This document shows positions 5,290 through 54,123 of a stretch of DNA of 64,000 bases, one piece after another. Position 1 is the stretch's first letter; each line of letters opens with the position of its first letter. The notes below the pieces were generated by a model. The model was not told where the DNA came from. It searched no databases and was given only the letters and a program-made list of their open reading frames with translations. The translations under genes were made by a program, and so were the position numbers. This stretch comes from a virus (Duplodnaviria; Caudoviricetes): IMG/VR virus record IMGVR_UViG_3300013383_000020, positions 44,518-108,517 of that record. One strand, given 5' to 3'.

Positions 5290-6321
5290 ATGGCACAGAC
5301 AAGAGACTACGCAACAAAGAAAAAGGGTAAAACTAAGGGTTATCCATTTTGGAATATGGAAGATATTAAGGGAATGATTGATTATTTTCGGAACAATCAA
5401 TTATGGAATGATTATTTGAAATTTATGTTGTTATTTTTATTTGGGAGAAGAGTAGGAGACACATTAGATATGGTGTGGTCTGATATTTTTTATCCAAATG
5501 GAACAATAAAGGATGAGATTAGAACAATTGAGGAACAAAAGACTGGGAAATACAATATCATATATATTTCACCATATGCAAAGCAGGTTATTAAAGAATA
5601 TCTACAGATAACAGGCATCAATCCATTATATGATTTAAATGACTATATTTTTCCATATGAGTTGAAGTATGAATGGAGAAAAATGGAGAACGATGATTTT
5701 TTTCATGAAACAGAATCTACAAATTATTCTGATAATGAAGCATTAGAAATGATTAACAGGTTTGTAGAGTTATACAACAAAGATTATAGCGAAGATAGAA
5801 TTAAAAAGATTTTAAATGAGTGGAGAAAGCATCAAAAAGAATTTAAAACTTTAGGAGAATATATATATAAAGAAGTAATTTTTAAAGATATTTCAAAATG
5901 GCAAATTGGAGCATTTGATAAAATTTTTAAAAAAGCAGTGGAATTTAACAAAATTCAATACAAGGTGACGATTCACAGTATAAGGCGTTCCTTTGGATAT
6001 TATAGTAAAGTAATTCATCCACATGATATGTTATGTTTGGAAACTTTACAGAATATTTTTGGACACAGTGACACACAAACAACTATGCATTATATTGGTT
6101 TATCTGAAGAAAGAGAAAGAATGTATTATACCGATATTGGAGATTTTTTAAATGGTGTATCAAATGGGAATTATGATCTAAAGAAGAATAGCCCCGTAAT
6201 AACAATAAAAGAACAAGACTTAAGAAAGATTTTATTAAAAGCCATTAAACTAAACTCTAATGATGCAGCGATATCTTTAAATCAAATATTAGACGAAATT
6301 GATGAGGTGAAATTAGAATGA
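5290..6321 (+). CDS. tyrosine recombinase (Xer/resolvase-like, no obvious arm-binding domain)
   Basis: GRRVGD, KTGK, HSIRRSF, GHSDTQTTMHY give the R-K-H-R-H-Y catalytic set. Confidence 0.92.
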   Translation: MAQTRDYATKKKGKTKGYPFWNMEDIKGMIDYFRNNQLWNDYLKFMLLFLFGRRVGDTLDMVWSDIFYPNGTIKDEIRTIEEQKTGKYNIIYISPYAKQVIKEYLQITGINPLYDLNDYIFPYELKYEWRKMENDDFFHETESTNYSDNEALEMINRFVELYNKDYSEDRIKKILNEWRKHQKEFKTLGEYIYKEVIFKDISKWQIGAFDKIFKKAVEFNKIQYKVTIHSIRRSFGYYSKVIHPHDMLCLETLQNIFGHSDTQTTMHYIGLSEERERMYYTDIGDFLNGVSNGNYDLKKNSPVITIKEQDLRKILLKAIKLNSNDAAISLNQILDEIDEVKLE

Positions 6322-14992: not shown

Positions 14993-15020
14993 GTAACAAG
15001 AAATATTTTTTTCATTCGAT
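14993..15020. repeat. dif-like dyad site (aagaaa-tatttt-tttcat)
   Basis: Strict consensus. Confidence 0.75.
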
Positions 15021-15134
15021 TAGGCAGACGTGTTTATTTTCGAGTGATTTTATAACAAAAATTATTAAAATGAAAGGATTAAACAGTAACTCCTAGGTAA
15101 AAATGATTGCGCAATCTCTGTAGATTAAAGGATT

Positions 15135-16235
15135 TTGACAGAGAATAAAGAAAAAAATAATTATTGTGAGCTTAATGGAAGACCATTACGTTTACTAATA
15201 GGTGGTTCACCTTGTACATATTGGTCGATTGCTCAGAAGAACAATAGAGAAACAGAAGCAGAAGGGTTAGGATGGGAGCTATTTAAAAACTATTTAATAG
15301 CAAAGGATAAATTCAAACCTGATTTATTTCTATATGAGAATAATAAATCAGCTTCATCGGCTATAAAAGAACAGATTGTACATGAGCTTGGATATCCATT
15401 ACAAATTATTGACAGTGCATTAGTATCAGCTCAAAAGAGATTAAGATTCTATGTAAAGAACTGGACGTGTCCATTGCCAGAAGATAGAGAAATTTTATTG
15501 AAAGATATTCTTGAATTATCGGAAAGTGTAGTTGAAAGAGAAAAGGCTTATTGTTTATGTACAGATCACGTTGGAACAACGAGAGATTATTTTAAGAAAC
15601 ATCAGAGTCAGATTGTATTTGAACCAGTAAGAATCGGAGATATTGGAAGTAATTCACAAGCTCATAGAGTTTATAGTTGTTATGGGAAGTCTGTTAATTT
15701 AGTTGCTAATGGCGGTGGTCAAGGTGCAAAAACTGGCTTATATTTTGTACCACTTCCAGAAGAATTAGAGAAATTAGTGTGTGATAAGGGGAAAATTTAT
15801 AAGGTTACAAATAAAACTATCCCTACAAAATTTGGTGAATTCCAAGTAAATTTACCAGATGGATTATACATAATTAGAAAACTCACTGTGACAGAAGCAG
15901 CAAGATTACAAACTATGCCAGATAATTATATGAAGTCTGTATCTGCACAACAAGGATATAAAGGGCTTGGGAATGGTTGGACAGCAGAAGTAATTATTCA
16001 TCAGTTAAAATATGGACTCAAAGATATCCCTAAAGATTATCCAATTGAAGTTTTATCTATGTACGATGGAATTGGAACTGGAAGATATTGTTTGGATAAA
16101 ATGGGATTTACAAATATTACATATAAAGCATATGAGATTGATAAGTATGCTATGACAGTTGCCAATGATAATTATCCAGATATTATTCAGTGTGGTGACG
16201 CATTCCAAGTCAGAAACGATGATTGGGAATATTAA
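15135..16235 (+). CDS. circularly permuted C5-cytosine DNA methyltransferase
   Basis: GGSPC near N-terminus; motif I (SMYDGIG) and II-III at C-terminus. Confidence 0.88.
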   Translation: MTENKEKNNYCELNGRPLRLLIGGSPCTYWSIAQKNNRETEAEGLGWELFKNYLIAKDKFKPDLFLYENNKSASSAIKEQIVHELGYPLQIIDSALVSAQKRLRFYVKNWTCPLPEDREILLKDILELSESVVEREKAYCLCTDHVGTTRDYFKKHQSQIVFEPVRIGDIGSNSQAHRVYSCYGKSVNLVANGGGQGAKTGLYFVPLPEELEKLVCDKGKIYKVTNKTIPTKFGEFQVNLPDGLYIIRKLTVTEAARLQTMPDNYMKSVSAQQGYKGLGNGWTAEVIIHQLKYGLKDIPKDYPIEVLSMYDGIGTGRYCLDKMGFTNITYKAYEIDKYAMTVANDNYPDIIQCGDAFQVRNDDWEY

Positions 16236-24466: not shown

Positions 24467-24694
24467 GTGAAGTTAATTGGTGACGAAGCATTTGAAGAAT
24501 ATCAGAAATTAAAAGATAAGAATACTCCAAAGAAAGTAAAAACGCAAAAATATGAACTATTAGTTAAATCAGGATGGGAGTATGCATGTCCTGCTTGTGG
24601 ATGTGCTGTTGGTGCAAATAAATATGACACAGAATATACTGACGAATATCCATATTGTGACAATTGCGGTCAGGCATTAGATTGGAAAAAATAA
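24467..24694 (+). CDS. Zn-ribbon protein (single-gene cassette)
   Basis: CPACG...YCDNCGQALDW. Confidence 0.75.
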   Translation: MKLIGDEAFEEYQKLKDKNTPKKVKTQKYELLVKSGWEYACPACGCAVGANKYDTEYTDEYPYCDNCGQALDWKK

Positions 24695-24698
24695 CAAG

Positions 24699-25009
24699 AA
24701 TCCAATCTTTCAAGCGAATTTTCAATCTTTACTCGATAGAATTTATGTTCATTTCCTTGCTTATCAAATCCCTTAATAATGGATTTATCCAGCCAAAAGT
24801 AGCCCTCTTTCAGATCTTCTAATGGCTGTTTGGTTGTATCTCTCAAGAATGTAAGATACTCATTGTAAATTGGGTTCACTCATATACCTGAGTGTTATGT
24901 ACATAACCTTTTACCTAGGATTATCCTTACCTTTCTTTGATTTTATGGCATTTGCAACTACCATTTATGTTGTTATTTGTTCAAAAATTTTCCAATGAAA
25001 GATTGGATT
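24699..25009. other. Inverted segment bounded by 14-bp inverted repeats
   Basis: aatccaatctttca (24699-24712) / tgaaagattggatt (24996-25009). Confidence 0.88.
24700..24879 (-). CDS. Inverted 5' end of the PAPS-reductase-family gene
   Basis: MNPIY...SLERLD joins ERLDCTKLK... in frame on re-inversion. Confidence 0.85.
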
Positions 25010-25654
25010 GCACCAAATTGAAATCCTATGACAATATATCAGATGTAGATTTAGCAAGTTGGCAAGACTTAATCGAATTACAGAAAGAACATCTAACGCA
25101 GCTTGAAGCTGATTCATTAGAACTAATCAAAGAAAAGACAGAGAAGTTTAATACATATACTTCAATAATTCCTGTCTCTATGGGTAAGGATTCAATGCTT
25201 ACCTGTCATCTAGTCAGAAAATTATATCCAGAAACCAAAGCAATATTTAATAACACATCGCTTGACTGTGCTGATACATACAAAATGGTTAAGACTTTTC
25301 CTAACTGTGAGATTATGAATCCTAAGAAGGGATTTTACCAGTATGTAGAATCAGATCACATGATCCCTACGAGATTTGCAAGATTTTGCTGTAGGATTTT
25401 CAAGGTTGGTGTTATGGTATCCCAGCTTGACCACGACCATCCGTATCTTATGTGGATGGGAATGCGAAACGAAGAGTCAAATACTCGTAGTGGTTATCAG
25501 GATGAATGGGTGAATGAGCAGGAATGGGGCAAGACCCGTTGGCAAGGTATTCTTCCTATTAGAAAATGGTCAGAGATGGATGTATGGCTTTATACAATTT
25601 GGAAGAATATTGAGATAAATTCCAAGTATAAGAAGGGTTATTCTCGTTGTGGGT
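24997..25654 (+). CDS. PAPS-reductase family (PP-loop) protein, exon 1 remainder
   Basis: SMGKDS, RFCCRIFK, GMRNEESNTR, PIRKWSEMDVW, GYSRCG. Confidence 0.88.
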
Positions 25655-26789
25655 GGACTTTGTTACGCCCCTTTATATAGAAATATATATCGAAAATGCA
25701 GTGAACACGTTTATCAGCGTGGTGTCAGATTAACGATGTTAGGAATTGTAGGAAATGACAATTAGTAATCTGGCTAACAGGGAAGCCTAAATCAAAGATG
25801 ATATGGTAATCCTGTGCTAAGTCTTTTGGTTGAGACGAAAGGAAAGATAAAAATAAGTAGATTAGGAACAATTTATATTATAAGAAATAAATGTAATGAT
25901 AAAGTTTATATTGGACAGACAACACAATCTGTTGAGGAAAGATTTAAACAACATCTAAAACCATCTGCACATAAAAAATTTGGTAATTATAAAATTTATA
26001 GAGCAATGAATAAATATGGTTCTGATAACTTCTATTGTGAAGTATTAGAAGAGAATATACCATATGAAAAACTCGATGAAAAAGAAGTATATTACATAGA
26101 AAAATTTGATGGTTTTCATAATGGATATAATTCTACTCCTGGTGGTGACGAAAAAACTATTTATAAAATTGATGATGTAAATGATATTATCAATAGATTA
26201 CAGACTGGTGAAATGATAAAAAACATTGCAAATGATTATGATGTTTGTCCTCATACAATAAGAAGAACTTTGCAAGCATATGGAATTAATACTCCAAGTG
26301 ATATACAAGGCAAACATATTCGAGAAGATTTACGAACAATTCCAAGAGAAGAAATAAGGGAATTATACACAAAAGGACTATCGCATTCAGAAATTGCAAA
26401 GGAACTTGGTATAGATCAGAGAAGTGTTTCGAGAGTGGTAAAAGAACTTGGGATAGGGAAAAGAAACGTAATTGATTATAATTCGTTAGATTTAGACGCA
26501 ATTTTGATTGATTTTGAAAAAGCCGAATCTGGCGAATTAAAGAAAAAAGATGTTTTGAAAAAATATGGCTTAAATCAACATTCATTAAAAGTAATTAAGA
26601 AATTAAAAAATATATCATAAACGACCAAAAGAAAAGTCAATCGACTATTATGTAGGGCTGAGATTGATACAGCTCGAAGTGCTGCACACGAGTAATTATA
26701 GATTATTCTGAGTGATGTTCTGTCACAAACCTAACGTTAAACGAGGGTGATGATATAGTCAGTACTATATGAAAATATAGAATTATATG
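25655..26789 (+). mobile_element. Group I intron
   Basis: Exon U/terminal G; IGS ttacgccc pairs with gggt (P1) and gtaa (P10); gacta/gatatagtc P7 motifs; splicing restores GYSRCGCNIACPF. Confidence 0.88.
25814..26620 (+). CDS. intron-encoded GIY-YIG homing endonuclease with C-terminal HTH
   Basis: GTIYII...VYIGQT...GYN. Confidence 0.88.
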   Translation: MLSLLVETKGKIKISRLGTIYIIRNKCNDKVYIGQTTQSVEERFKQHLKPSAHKKFGNYKIYRAMNKYGSDNFYCEVLEENIPYEKLDEKEVYYIEKFDGFHNGYNSTPGGDEKTIYKIDDVNDIINRLQTGEMIKNIANDYDVCPHTIRRTLQAYGINTPSDIQGKHIREDLRTIPREEIRELYTKGLSHSEIAKELGIDQRSVSRVVKELGIGKRNVIDYNSLDLDAILIDFEKAESGELKKKDVLKKYGLNQHSLKVIKKLKNIS

Positions 26790-27253
26790 GTAATATTGCG
26801 TGTCCGTTTTATACGAAGTCAACATGGATTTTGGACAAGTATTGGTATCCACAGGCTTATGAGAGATGGAGAAACATTTTAAAACAAGACTTCATCGCAA
26901 ATAAGAAATGGATAATCATGAACTGTACTATTGACGAATATCTTACACAGGCTTGGAATGGTGGAACATTCAGAGATGAACCAACTGATGAAGTCATTAA
27001 AGAATTTGCTGAGTATAACGGATTGAATGTTGGCGACACAAAAGTAGCAAGGCAGTATTTTAATAAATATTGTGATGAGTGCGAAAAGAGAATAAAAGAC
27101 AAGACAACGCTGGCTATGAACATGAAGTTCCACGGAAGAGATGTATCGAAGTTTTTGTGTAAGAAATGTTTTAAGAAATTGTACGAGATGGATGATGATA
27201 AGTGGAATAAGTATGTTGAATCGTTTAAAAGAGATGGTTGTGCGTTGTTTTAA
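26790..27253 (+). CDS. PAPS-reductase family protein, exon 2 (C-terminal Zn finger)
   Basis: NIACPFY...CDEC...LCKKC. Confidence 0.85.
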
Positions 27254-27315: not shown

Positions 27316-27343
27316 GTCGAAGGAAATTTTTCTTTCTTGTGAA
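27316..27343. repeat. dif-like dyad site (aggaaa-tttttc-tttctt)
   Basis: Strict consensus. Confidence 0.8.
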
Positions 27344-28387: not shown

Positions 28388-29077
28388 ATGAATGAAATAA
28401 AAAATGGTACAAGATTATATATAAACCTGACTAACAAATGTAATACAAACTGTCCATTTTGTTGTATGTATAGTGGAGTTGACAAAGATAGGTTTCTTAC
28501 ATTTGAACAATTTGAGGACATAATTGATAATTGTACAACGGATTTTGAGCTTCAGTTAGAAGGTGGTGAACCACTTTTACATAAAGATATTTTTCTCTTT
28601 ATAGAATACGCAATTCACACTAATAAATGTACTAAGGTAATCGTATTGACTAACGGAATTTTACTTCCAGCTTATATGAATAGATTTATAGGCATTGCTA
28701 ACTGGTACAATACTAAATTTGAATTTAAGATAAGTATTAATTACTTCTTGCTAAATCAAGCAAAGAAATCAGGCATAGATCAGTTAAAAGTATTTAGCAA
28801 TATTGCATTTGCGACAGATTATATTCCAAATATAGATGTTATATTCAATGTAAGAAAAAGGCATAGTATTGATGAGTGGATCGAAAATGAGTTAGAAAAA
28901 TATGATTTAAAGAAAAAATCTAATATTTTTTATTTACAATCATATGGAAAACTTACAGATAGCGATGAATATGATAAGCCAATAATAGTTCAAAATATAG
29001 ACGATTGGAAAATTTATGCCAGCGATGGAACATGTTTTGGACAAGATTTAATTGCCAGAAGCGAATATGAAAAATAG
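28388..29077 (+). CDS. radical SAM protein
   Basis: CNTNCPFC, GGEP, TNG. Confidence 0.9.
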   Translation: MNEIKNGTRLYINLTNKCNTNCPFCCMYSGVDKDRFLTFEQFEDIIDNCTTDFELQLEGGEPLLHKDIFLFIEYAIHTNKCTKVIVLTNGILLPAYMNRFIGIANWYNTKFEFKISINYFLLNQAKKSGIDQLKVFSNIAFATDYIPNIDVIFNVRKRHSIDEWIENELEKYDLKKKSNIFYLQSYGKLTDSDEYDKPIIVQNIDDWKIYASDGTCFGQDLIARSEYEK

Positions 29078-29089
29078 GAGCGAAATAGA

Positions 29090-30025
29090 ATGAACACAAT
29101 TAAGTTTAGCAAAAGAGAGAATAAAACTACGGAGCAGCATAATTTGCAAATTACAAATATTGTAGATTCTAATATATTTGGTTCTCATCTAAAAATGTAC
29201 ACACCTTGTAATTTAAATATTTTTGTCACAGAGTCGTGTCAAAATAAATGTTTTTTCTGTATCAATGATAAGACGAATAAAAATATACACATGCGTCCCT
29301 TATCAGATGAAGAATATATTATTGGGCTTAAAAAATTATTGAACGAACTTAATTGTGAGAATTTTGAAACAACCATTACTGGTGGAGAACCTACTTTAGA
29401 CATTCATAGGTTTGTAGAAACTATGCGAATTTGTCATGAACATAATTTAAAGTGCAGGACAGTAAGCACAACAGGATTAAATCTCATGAGTTTGTATGAT
29501 GGGAAACCACTGTGCCAGCATATGATTGAAAACAATTTTGTACATAACATCAACATAAGTAGAATGCATTATGATGAATCAAAAAATAACGAAATCTCTG
29601 GTGGAAGAAATATAACAGATAAGGATATCGAAAGATTGGCATTATTCTTCAAATTAAATAATGCCGAAATGAGAGTAAGTTGTAATCTGATAAAAGGTTA
29701 TATTGATAATCCTGATGACATTTTAAAATTTATAAAACATTATATGAATCTTGGTGTTGAAACGGTTATGTTCAGAGAATTAGAAATGTGTGAGAATGTT
29801 AGATTAAATAATATTGTAGAAAGTATACTTGGATTATTTGAATATATAGAAACTTTACATGGAATGGTTTATGACGTAGACGTATATAGTTACAAAGATT
29901 TAATCGTGAAACATTACAAAACTTTGGAGAATATAAATAAAGAGATAACATATTCACTTTCTTATAAAAATGGTATTGTGAAAGATGGTTTTATAGGAAA
30001 TAAACTAAATGTCAAATTGACATAG
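29090..30025 (+). CDS. radical SAM protein
   Basis: CQNKCFFC, TGGEPT, NISR, FREL. Confidence 0.9.
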   Translation: MNTIKFSKRENKTTEQHNLQITNIVDSNIFGSHLKMYTPCNLNIFVTESCQNKCFFCINDKTNKNIHMRPLSDEEYIIGLKKLLNELNCENFETTITGGEPTLDIHRFVETMRICHEHNLKCRTVSTTGLNLMSLYDGKPLCQHMIENNFVHNINISRMHYDESKNNEISGGRNITDKDIERLALFFKLNNAEMRVSCNLIKGYIDNPDDILKFIKHYMNLGVETVMFRELEMCENVRLNNIVESILGLFEYIETLHGMVYDVDVYSYKDLIVKHYKTLENINKEITYSLSYKNGIVKDGFIGNKLNVKLT

Positions 30026-30034
30026 GAGGTTAAG

Positions 30035-31114
30035 ATGATAAAGGTAGGTTCTGAACGAGAAATCAAATTTGATAAAGAATTAAGAAACAAAAGACATATG
30101 GCTAAAACATGTGGAACAAAAGATTACAATATTAATAATTACGATTTAAAAGAGTTTGAGTTTGCAACTGGCAATAAAAAAGTATATGGGAATGTAAATT
30201 TCAATATTTTCATTGATGATTATTGCAACGCTGACTGTAAATTTTGTGTGGCTCAGTTAAGATATGAACATAAAAATGCTATGTATAACAAAGGTCATAT
30301 AAAAGATGTAGATAAATATTTGAGTAGGCTTGATGAAGTTTTAAGAATCGCAAAAGCTTTAGATACATCGGTTAGTATTACAGGTGGAGAACCAACAATG
30401 AGTCCAATCTTAACAGAAGTATTAAAAATGGTTGATTCATATGGTTTTAGAAAACGAACCATTACAACTAATGGAAGTGGTTTATTTCAAATCCAAGACA
30501 ATGATACGATTCTGAATAATCTCATTAAATACAATTGGGATTATTTGAATATTAGTAGAGCAAGTTATGATGATGAACTTAATCGTAAAATTATGAGATA
30601 TGTATCAGATAAAGAATATTGTACTATGGATATGTTAAATGAAATTCTAAATATTTCTAATAAAACTAATCTAAAACATCGTATCAGTTGTCTCTTACTC
30701 AAAGAGAGTGTAAATTCCGTTGAAGAAATGAAAAAGTATATTGATTTTTATAGTAAACTCGGTGTTAATAATTTCATTTTTAGAGAATTAATGGATTACG
30801 ATAAAAGTGCGGTCAACACAGAAAAAATGAAATACTGCGATGAGAATAAGATTAAGTTATATGATATTTGGAATGATTTTGATAAATATCCTGAGTTTGA
30901 ACCATACTTAAATATTCTTGGATATTACTATTATGTGGAGATTTATAAATATTTAGGAATGACAGTAGCAAGTGAAACAGCAGACTTGAATATCCAGAAT
31001 CGTGAGGTTGCAGCACATGATGATGTTGTTTATGAGATGGTATTTCATAATAATGGTAACTTATGTGCAAGTTGGATTGATAACGAAAGAATTTTAGACA
31101 AGTACATAGACTAG
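30035..31114 (+). CDS. radical SAM protein
   Basis: CNADCKFC, TGGEPT, TTNG, NISR, FREL. Confidence 0.9.
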   Translation: MIKVGSEREIKFDKELRNKRHMAKTCGTKDYNINNYDLKEFEFATGNKKVYGNVNFNIFIDDYCNADCKFCVAQLRYEHKNAMYNKGHIKDVDKYLSRLDEVLRIAKALDTSVSITGGEPTMSPILTEVLKMVDSYGFRKRTITTNGSGLFQIQDNDTILNNLIKYNWDYLNISRASYDDELNRKIMRYVSDKEYCTMDMLNEILNISNKTNLKHRISCLLLKESVNSVEEMKKYIDFYSKLGVNNFIFRELMDYDKSAVNTEKMKYCDENKIKLYDIWNDFDKYPEFEPYLNILGYYYYVEIYKYLGMTVASETADLNIQNREVAAHDDVVYEMVFHNNGNLCASWIDNERILDKYID

Positions 31115-52450: not shown

Positions 52451-54123
52451 GTTTGAAACAAAGAAGTAGAGGTTATCCGAGAAAATAGAGCATAACAAAT
52501 AAACCATCCCAGGGGGTGGCTTGAAAAATTAAATATTAACGCAACACCTAATCAGGAAACTGCTAAAGGCTTATCCTTTATGATGTAGCCCCGTTGTTTC
52601 AAAAGATTAAGTGCCTGTGAAGTGGAAAGAACTTTTTCCTCTTTTACAGGACGGGATTCAAGAAAACCTTCTGGAGTATATGGCTTTAAATCTGAAAGTA
52701 TGTGCCAGATAGCGGTCAGGATCATACGACAGACAGCAATGATGGCTTTCTTGTGACCACGGCGTGCTTTGATACGCTTGTAGCGGTTAGTAAATTCGGA
52801 ATGCTTTTTCGATTTGATTAAAGCATTTGCAACTTGCACCAGAACTGGTTTAAAATAAGAACCGGCACGGGAAATCCGAGTGGATTTGATTTTTTGATTG
52901 CTTTGATCGTTACGAGGACAGCATCCTGCCCATGAGACGAGGTGTTTCGCTGTGGGGAAGACAGACATATCACCACCAATCTCTGAAAGCACTTGAACAG
53001 CAGTCATCGGATTTTTATCGAATCCGGGAACAGTCCTTATTAAGTTTAAAGCAGCCTCATATTTATCACTGAGACGAAGGATTTCCTGTTCTATTTCTGA
53101 AATGTGCCTGTTCAGTTCATCGATGTGATCAAGACACTGTCTGAGTTTAACCGCTTGTTCTTTTGAAATGGCACCATCAACAGCAGCTTGTATTTCTTCG
53201 ATAGGAGTTTTACATCTGCCATCCACAAAAGGTGACACATCAAATGTTTCCCCGGGGTGTTGCAAAATCTGTTCTGTAATAGAACGGGAAGATTTACCAA
53301 ATACATCAGAAAAGACATCGTCAAGTTTTAGATTGGATACGGTAAGACAATTCTGAGCACGATTTTTTTCACCAGTGATCATGCAGGTGAGTTTATATCG
53401 GTATCTTACAAGATCTCGAAGCTCTCTGATGTCAGCAGGTGGAATGAAAGAAGGTTTCACCATTCCACACATGTAAAGGTCACAAATCCATTTCGCATCC
53501 TTGCGGTCGGTCTTGTTCCCTTTCATTGGTTTTGTGTATTTGGGATGAGAAAGAGTAACCCATAGATTGTGTTGCTCTAAAATGTTAAAAACAGGGATCC
53601 AGTACTTACCGGTAGATTCCATACAGACATCTGTACAGTTATATTTTGCAAGCCAATCACACAGCTCATTCAATCCTTTAGTAAAGGAAGAAAAGCGAGC
53701 TTGCTTATATTCAGTACGATTATTGGAATCTGTGATACCGATGCAGGCATAGATCCATGTTTTGTGGACGTCAAGTCCACAGCAGTTAAATTTTAAGATT
53801 TTAAAAGACAAAAAAATAACCTCCTGAAATTTATAGTTATAAAACTGACAGTGACTGGTCATCCGGCGAGATCGAGTCGACTTCGGAAGAGATAAGTTTA
53901 CGGGCTATTGTTATGCGCCACTCATTGATGCCTTAACGGATGACCGACAACATATACATATACGAGGTCGCCGCTATACAGCCCCGCCACTCACCTCCAC
54001 GTGTTCTGTAGTATGCCAGTCTTATAACATAATAATATCAGAAGAAATATAAATTAGATAGCGAAAGCTAATGCACATGTTTCATGACGCATTGGTGTCT
54101 TTCGCAGAAAGACGGGTAATACA
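52451..54123 (-). mobile_element. IS110-family element (ends approximate)
   Basis: Interrupts kinase ORF; no terminal inverted repeats. Confidence 0.85.
52552..53811 (-). CDS. IS110 transposase/recombinase
   Basis: GLDVHK, MESTG, KTDRKDA, SWAGCCP..DQS. Confidence 0.93.
   Translation of the reverse strand: MSFKILKFNCCGLDVHKTWIYACIGITDSNNRTEYKQARFSSFTKGLNELCDWLAKYNCTDVCMESTGKYWIPVFNILEQHNLWVTLSHPKYTKPMKGNKTDRKDAKWICDLYMCGMVKPSFIPPADIRELRDLVRYRYKLTCMITGEKNRAQNCLTVSNLKLDDVFSDVFGKSSRSITEQILQHPGETFDVSPFVDGRCKTPIEEIQAAVDGAISKEQAVKLRQCLDHIDELNRHISEIEQEILRLSDKYEAALNLIRTVPGFDKNPMTAVQVLSEIGGDMSVFPTAKHLVSWAGCCPRNDQSNQKIKSTRISRAGSYFKPVLVQVANALIKSKKHSEFTNRYKRIKARRGHKKAIIAVCRMILTAIWHILSDLKPYTPEGFLESRPVKEEKVLSTSQALNLLKQRGYIIKDKPLAVS

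Follow-up and report, generated by a model that had tools for sequence, protein, structure and literature searches.

Recurrent inversion at a PAPS-reductase-family gene of large temperate gut phages, a probable ON/OFF switch of phage DNA-modification genes

Why is a phage gene divided between the two strands of its own genome, and does this reflect an assembly error, a single past event or a switch? We considered this question for a gene of the PAPS-reductase family in a 108.5-kb virus record (65% complete), the right part of which is the 64-kb stretch of DNA analysed here (the window). Small accessory genes, methyltransferases and replication genes follow one another in a long array on the plus strand of the window. 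The initial annotation had placed the leader and the first ~60 codons of the PAPS gene on the minus strand between 14-bp inverted repeats and the rest on the plus strand, and our repeats and coordinates agreed with it (Table 1). The relatives are phages and proviruses of 100-220 kb, with Lachnospiraceae, Eubacterium segne and Lactonifactor among the named hosts; the switch is carried by large temperate phages whose hosts are gut Clostridia (Lachnospiraceae and kin).

Table 1. Coordinates of the two switches and associated features in the window
Feature	Position	Strand	Description
Invertible segment	24699..25009	.	311 bp including the 14-bp inverted repeats; OFF orientation in the window
Left recombination site, OFF hybrid	24696..24713	+	Upstream left arm, spacer CCAATC, intragenic right arm
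Codons 1-60, PAPS-reductase-family gene	24701..24879	-	GTG start (24879); small N-terminal helix/beta domain
Leader	24880..24994	-	Conserved and shared by every invertible allele; hairpin with GCAA loop, palindromes CTAG and TGTACA
Right recombination site, OFF hybrid	24995..25012	-	Intragenic left arm TGCAAT, CCAATC, TTTCAT
Rest of exon 1	24997..25654	+	PP-loop (SMGKDS) and CC motif of the PAPS-reductase domain
Intron	25655..26789	+	1135 nt; GIY-YIG endonuclease ORF at ~25814-26620; absent from most relatives
Exon 2	26790..27253	+	CxxxC motif, helical region, C-terminal CxxC...CxxC region
Next cassette site, closing the PAPS slot	27321..27338	+	Address TTTTTC
Second switch, same design	14998..15165	+	ON in the window; site 14998-15015 (address TATTTT), leader, inverted copy
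C5 cytosine DNA methyltransferase under the second switch	15135..16235	+	
Tyrosine recombinase (candidate only)	5290..6321	+	Intact R-K-HxxR-H-Y residues

The inverted repeats (24699-24712 and 24996-25009) are perfect over 14 bp and cannot be extended, and those of the relatives are 10-15 bp long. The left site begins 2 nt past the stop codon of the upstream gene, and its spacer CCAATC is also the slot address of the PAPS cassette boundary. When the segment is OFF, codons 1-60 are antisense and run on into a junk tail, and the remainder of exon 1 has neither start codon nor leader; when it is ON, the right site becomes codons 56-62, in the interdomain linker. Re-inversion produced one open frame composed of the GTG start, ~56-60 codons and the plus-strand exon, and removal of the intron gave 429 aa, as had been predicted. 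This protein was identical at 421 of 428 residues to that of an intronless relative (L004). The homologues have the MNPIY N-terminus, the absence of which would have counted against the reconstruction. The 5' exon ends in T and the intron ends in G; by these boundaries we assign the intron to group I, a putative class that the endonuclease ORF and the intronless relatives fit. An Rfam scan returned tRNAs only, matching neither the leaders nor the intron, for which no covariance model reached the gathering level. The intron sits in the RCG/CxxxC motif, and two relatives (L117 and L055) are mosaic around the insertion site, with several RxGC variants.

We classified 138 loci, each holding both halves of the PAPS gene. 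A spacer-matched inverted site pair was found at 69 loci, of which 39 were ON and 30 were OFF (22 OFF and 39 ON when the eight loci fetched because they were OFF are excluded); they comprise 55 distinct segments, 33 ON and 22 OFF. The remaining 69 loci, without a matched pair, were all ON, and 0 of 65 were OFF after the truncated ones had been dropped. Both orientations, with identical breakpoints, are present in nature: OFF alleles occurred in isolate genomes, metagenome assemblies and Logan contigs, and the breakpoint was always at the site. The lysogens with an OFF allele include Eubacterium segne BX4 and Lactonifactor sp. BIOML-A5. The tree of re-oriented alleles contained at least 14 state changes, 12 of which were forced by strongly supported branches, a count that is approximate because the alleles recombine and L167 is a long branch. 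One OFF allele (L073) is identical to two ON alleles (L062 and L075) across 945 nt, and another (L074) differs from an ON allele (L087) by 1 nt. Complete OFF alleles regained frames of 426-441 aa on re-inversion, with the exception of L152, which has a frame shift near the contig end. The initial annotation had left the choice between a one-off event and a phase-variable switch; the repeated state changes and the identical alleles in both states refute the former and favour the latter. The misassembly that it had named as a danger was answered by both orientations in independent assemblies, including the flipped isolate genomes L048 and L050. The Logan contigs of X1, X2 and X4 had ON junctions, with an exact 14-base overlap at two joints, and assembled contigs from four sequencing runs had ON junctions only. 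Two contigs (L002 and L160) stop at most 1 base from the branch point, which is suggestive of mixed samples and anecdotal.

The sites at which the segment inverts belong to a family with the dyad GAAW-N6-TTTC, weaker outer symmetry and a commonest spacing of 6. As at core sites of the lox/dif type, where the spacer is 6-8 bp long, inverted arms surround a spacer (here of 6 bp) that the partners share. About 20-40 such dyads split the accessory arm of these phages, and the 6-bp spacers act as slot addresses. The record of the window has ~21 dyads, many of them at or just past stop codons, and a site matrix seeded on these same sites gave 21 matches in the arm and 0.75 in shuffles. Among the relatives, the spacer was kept when one neighbour was replaced (97% and 85% identity, background 2%), and the spacer order was conserved in 110 of 112 pairs. 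Re-inversion had been expected to restore a consensus site upstream and to leave a weak pseudo-site in the gene. The restored site, AAGAAT-ccaatc-TTTCAT, was found naturally in the ON relatives L022, L069 and L138; on a site matrix from other phages it scored 14.5 bits and the intragenic copy -2.3, with a family median of 15.5.

Spacer-dependent recombination at this site family, also proposed earlier, was borne out by the position of the crossover and by the OFF loci. Arm polymorphisms confined the crossover to the 6-bp spacer and the invariant TTT: the final base of the left arm remains attached to the outer flank, and the base at position 4 of the right arm travels with the inverting segment. 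All 30 OFF loci had matched spacers, 29 of them at 6/6 and the other at 5/6. The address that the intragenic copy mirrors is always that of its own slot, with 15 matched spacer types that are a mean of 4.3 mismatches apart, and the linker residues vary in step with the intragenic spacer. The intragenic site occurs at codon 50 and, in two registers, at codon 56, and OFF alleles were found at each of these three placements. Four chimeric alleles with badly mismatched spacers (L071, L128, L148 and L163) were all ON, and are presumably locked in this state. An inversion between unequal spacers by a tyrosine recombinase, followed by replication, would itself equalise the spacers, and for this reason spacer matching proves recombination and not selection. 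The intragenic spacer TATTTT of L163 and the upstream TATTTT of L071 suggest a matched allele at the methyltransferase address.

The design is repeated, unremarked in the initial annotation, at the C5 methyltransferase slot of the window, where the inverted spacer-matched copy (15148-15165) lies in codons 5-10 of the methyltransferase. This switch was flipped in six relatives (L190, L200, L218, L078, G001 and G010), and the invertible head, which is ~nine codons long and contains the inverted copy, is kept before several different methyltransferase bodies. The states of the PAPS and methyltransferase switches vary separately, being OFF and ON in the window phage and G009, ON and OFF in G001 and G010, and both ON in G003, respectively. 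The leaders of the two genes (24880-24994 on the minus strand and 15016-15134 on the plus strand) share AAAGG...CCTAGGTAAAA, followed by a perfect palindrome. The palindrome is TGTACA at the PAPS gene and TGCGCA or TACGTA at methyltransferases; these are possibly operators or the enzymes' own targets.

An inverted address-matched copy followed 13 of the 277 sites in nine records (null mean 0.24), and all 13 were at two of the 38 addresses, both of which head DNA-modification-type genes. When 4,482 inverted-repeat pairs were screened, flips in relatives were found at the PAPS and C5 methyltransferase loci only, in a database that was enriched for these two loci but also held nine accessory arms. 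One-sided flipped-junction matches at other loci were alignment artefacts. Within the intragenic arms, 45 of 46 synonymously free codons were arm-compatible, a count that is partly circular, as the sites were partly picked by the same pattern and the lineages are related. Because of the restriction to two addresses, the reuse of the methyltransferase head, the two-locus screen and the retention of arm codons, we believe that the switch is not accidental and that it is probably a programmed, reversible phase variation that turns phage DNA-modification genes ON and OFF by means of the spacer-addressed cassette sites.

Other explanations have to be weighed against this reading. We give almost no credence to a misassembly, an amplification chimera or a single historical inversion, since isolates, metagenome assemblies and Logan contigs share the same breakpoints, the 10-15 bp repeat is shorter than assembly k-mers, the OFF state is scattered over the tree, and thousands of other short inverted repeats had no flips. 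It is confirmed that the inversion is recurrent, and neither a misassembly nor a single event. Recurrence could also arise without adaptation, if the cassette-exchange recombinase captured a latent half-site, homogenised its spacer and flipped the segment rarely as a tolerated by-product. This would agree with the weak PAPS intragenic site, of which one arm (half of the GAAA arm) already exists in non-invertible alleles, with the lack of a switch at about half of the homologous loci, with the low complexity of the methyltransferase address TATTTT, and with the few alleles whose mismatched spacers should lock them ON. The N6-methyltransferase slot (18992) has no switch, which likewise counts against a programmed one. 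However, a by-product would hardly be expected at just two of 38 addresses, both with modification-type genes, or to have its site re-established at three placements, its arm-compatible synonymous codons kept, its OFF alleles undecayed and its head retained on different methyltransferases, and we consider it unlikely.

The inversion could instead be developmental and not bet-hedging, with OFF shielding the lysogen from a toxic modifier until it is reversed or reselected in lytic growth. Three isolate-derived records (L048, L050 and L116) are OFF, and the conserved, elaborate leaders of all alleles suggest a tightly restrained product; but many provirus-classed records (G001, G003, G004, G005 and G010) and three loci from bacterial genome assemblies (L045, L046 and L047) are ON, and the same four half-sites serve both directions. 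We regard such directional silencing as quite improbable. Even less probable, to the point of being very hard to maintain, is an isoform switch in which the protein made from OFF has a changed or shortened N-terminus and another activity. None of the catalytic domain (residues ~85-291) is encoded in the segment, and gene callers annotate OFF products of 366-406 aa, yet leader indels vary the OFF upstream frame, at least three unrelated heads occur among the alleles, and no ribosome-binding site was seen ahead of that frame. A shufflon- or hsdS-type domain swap was also rejected, as there is no second head and the OFF upstream frames are unrelated between alleles.

Returning to programmed phase variation, we propose that a weak inverted copy of the slot address, in the linker after the N-terminal domain, would act as the intragenic partner. 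Recombination between the upstream and intragenic copies turns round the leader together with the start codon and the first ~57 codons; each of the two products occurs commonly and is intact. The segment would be flipped slowly, in both directions, by a tyrosine recombinase that works in trans, so that ON would give the 429-aa enzyme, which would modify DNA, and OFF would give none. With the C5 methyltransferase slot under the same design, phage lineages could hedge between modified and unmodified DNA, and might escape one class of host restriction without becoming a permanent target of another. In the OFF orientation the gene is cut off from its conserved leader, start codon and N-terminal domain. 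A scan for sigma-70-type promoters gave 2 matches in the segment, below the 5.2 expected by chance. With no sigma-70 promoter standing out there, the most likely point of action of the switch is the translation of a read-through transcript. Whether a single recombination system does two jobs, namely slot-wise gene swapping between genomes and switching of modification genes within a genome, giving a phase-variable epigenome that includes an undescribed PAPS-reductase-fold DNA modification, is a tentative idea to which we give slightly less than an even chance. If it is true, each phage lineage would have a combinatorial, phase-variable epigenome. Non-invertible PAPS alleles (L070:9800-10000, L089, L049 and L052, together with L077 and L097) carry conserved leaders of two further kinds. 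A CCCTG..CAGGG hairpin and an anti-Shine-Dalgarno stretch mark the first kind, and CCTAGTGAAACTAGG marks the second; both are candidate structured regulatory RNAs.

Which enzyme might flip the segment? Besides the tyrosine recombinase of the window, a second catalytically intact one lies outside it (G000:22032-23066), and both slots, in the early and late regions, are usually filled in relatives. Neither slot is conserved, as the occupants are often <30% identical and non-orthologous among phages with the same addresses. There was no serine recombinase in five records, and no well-conserved phage gene stood out as a recombinase candidate. The recombinase fold alone does not assign function, because MrpR of SPbeta has the same fold and is a repressor (PMC10516654). 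The enzyme that flips the segment may be a host one of the Xer type, or a phage recombinase that is not strict in recognising the arms.

The PAPS-reductase-family protein matched PF01507 (E 7.8e-21), and its structure model (pLDDT 90) resembled APS/PAPS reductases, CysD and FAD synthase with Z of 15-18. Besides the PP-loop it has a CC and a CxxxC motif, both invariant, and a C-terminal region with four cysteines; we found no solved close homologue. The best PADLOC match was BrxP (E 1.6e-31), covering only the PAPS part of BrxP. DndC/SspD/BrxP (PMC12914056) and the Vibrio PAPS-Dam protein (10.1101/2021.05.05.442762) likewise combine a PP-loop PAPS-reductase fold with cysteine motifs, but unlike DndC/SspD/BrxP the phage protein has no partner ATPase and has its own N- and C-terminal domains. 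No DndC model matched it, and the partner ATPase DndD or SspC/BrxC was found in 0 of 5 records, 4 of which are >90% complete. Because it lacks a DndC match and a phage-encoded DndD or SspC/BrxC, the enzyme is not filed as a phosphorothioation system; the host may supply a partner.

One study has shown that a Vibrio phage PAPS-Dam fusion counters Dnd, and that a recombinant in which PAPS-Dam replaced the resident methylases lost the ancestral host (10.1101/2021.05.05.442762). PMC13551039 likewise reads phage PAPS reductases as anti-defence. At about 9 of 33 loci with distant homologues of our protein, a DNA methyltransferase lies next to the homologue (7 Pfam-confirmed), and the PAPS gene and the C5 methyltransferase have slot architecture, leader style and switch in common. 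From these neighbours, the common design and the two published cases, we predict that the enzyme is likely to modify DNA for anti-restriction. A small gene whose product starts with MKxYYAH follows distant PAPS homologues (L057:11348-11746, L060, L131, L132 and L134) and belongs to no clear Pfam family.

Several known inversions are comparable. E. coli fimS (FimB/FimE) and C. difficile flg (RecV) are ON/OFF switches with tyrosine-recombinase-type sites, and the enzyme can act in trans. The G segment of Mu and the C segment of P1 alter tail fibres by means of adjacent serine invertases (Gin and Cin), which hedges host range. To our knowledge, the phage inversions described so far act on tail fibres, and the epigenetic invertons described so far belong to host restriction systems. 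The present switch is phage-borne like those of Mu and P1, though the five records held no invertase of the serine type. It resembles fimS and flg in its segment of about 150-310 bp, its ON/OFF action and its tyrosine-recombinase-type sites; these flip a promoter or non-coding leader, whereas the phage switch flips the translation start and the first protein domain. An invertible promoter of the fimS type was rejected, as the segment holds 60 codons and its sigma-70 matches are below chance. The fimS segment is 314 bp long (10.1101/2022.09.20.508701).

The switch works like a fimS-type ON/OFF inversion and fits the 'partial intergenic inverton' class of PMC10028968. Like the PhaVa invertons there and the gene-altering inversions of PMC9881135, it has short inverted repeats, one of them intragenic, and both orientations are natural. 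In PMC9881135, DNA methyltransferases and PglX are enriched among inversion targets. Those published cases mostly swap homologous domains between paired coding sequences, whereas the phage switch has no silent partner and its sites double as cassette boundaries. The search in PMC9881135 demanded repeats of at least 22 bp and would miss the 10-15 bp phage repeats, and neither main text mentions a PAPS-reductase gene. The hsdS invertons of type I R-M systems (S. pneumoniae ivr/PsrA; PMC7672463) likewise vary the DNA-modification state within a population, but they belong to the host and alter specificity by means of an adjacent invertase, and the phage switch turns a putative orphan modifier ON and OFF.

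Repeated sites between accessory genes, with neighbours swapped, are also known from lox/FRT exchange, pdif modules and T4-type PeSLs (PMC2839356). Spacer identity decides the partners at the phage cassette sites, as in heterospecific lox/FRT; lox/FRT exchange is engineered, and PeSLs are promoter-terminator repeats (PMC2839356). In the literature searched, we found no report that lox/FRT or PeSLs supply an inverted intragenic copy as a switch, no description of this site family or of either switch (nor any match in the supplements of PMC11892184), and no phage in which DNA-modification genes of its own are turned ON and OFF by inversion. Two aspects are new: a phage phase-varies putative DNA-modification genes of its own, and sites that serve as cassette addresses are used again for switching. 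The switch is a direct footprint of recombination at the spacer-addressed cassette sites of these phages. As a natural substrate of 170-310 bp that can be read out by PCR, it would serve to hunt for the recombinase and to test the address rule. The orphan PAPS-reductase-family gene, regulated exactly like a methyltransferase, is a candidate new DNA modifier whose natural ON/OFF pairs are built-in controls.

Elsewhere in the window, three radical SAM genes stand in tandem at 28388-31114, with a cassette site at the end of the run. At 52552-53862 and 59834-60993 there are an IS110-family transposase, recognised by Pfam, and a pair of minus-strand ORFs that resemble an IS3-type element by eye. 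The C-terminus of protein P0062 is a fold-back of its own gene, which has the appearance of an assembly or amplification chimera and is unrelated to the switch.
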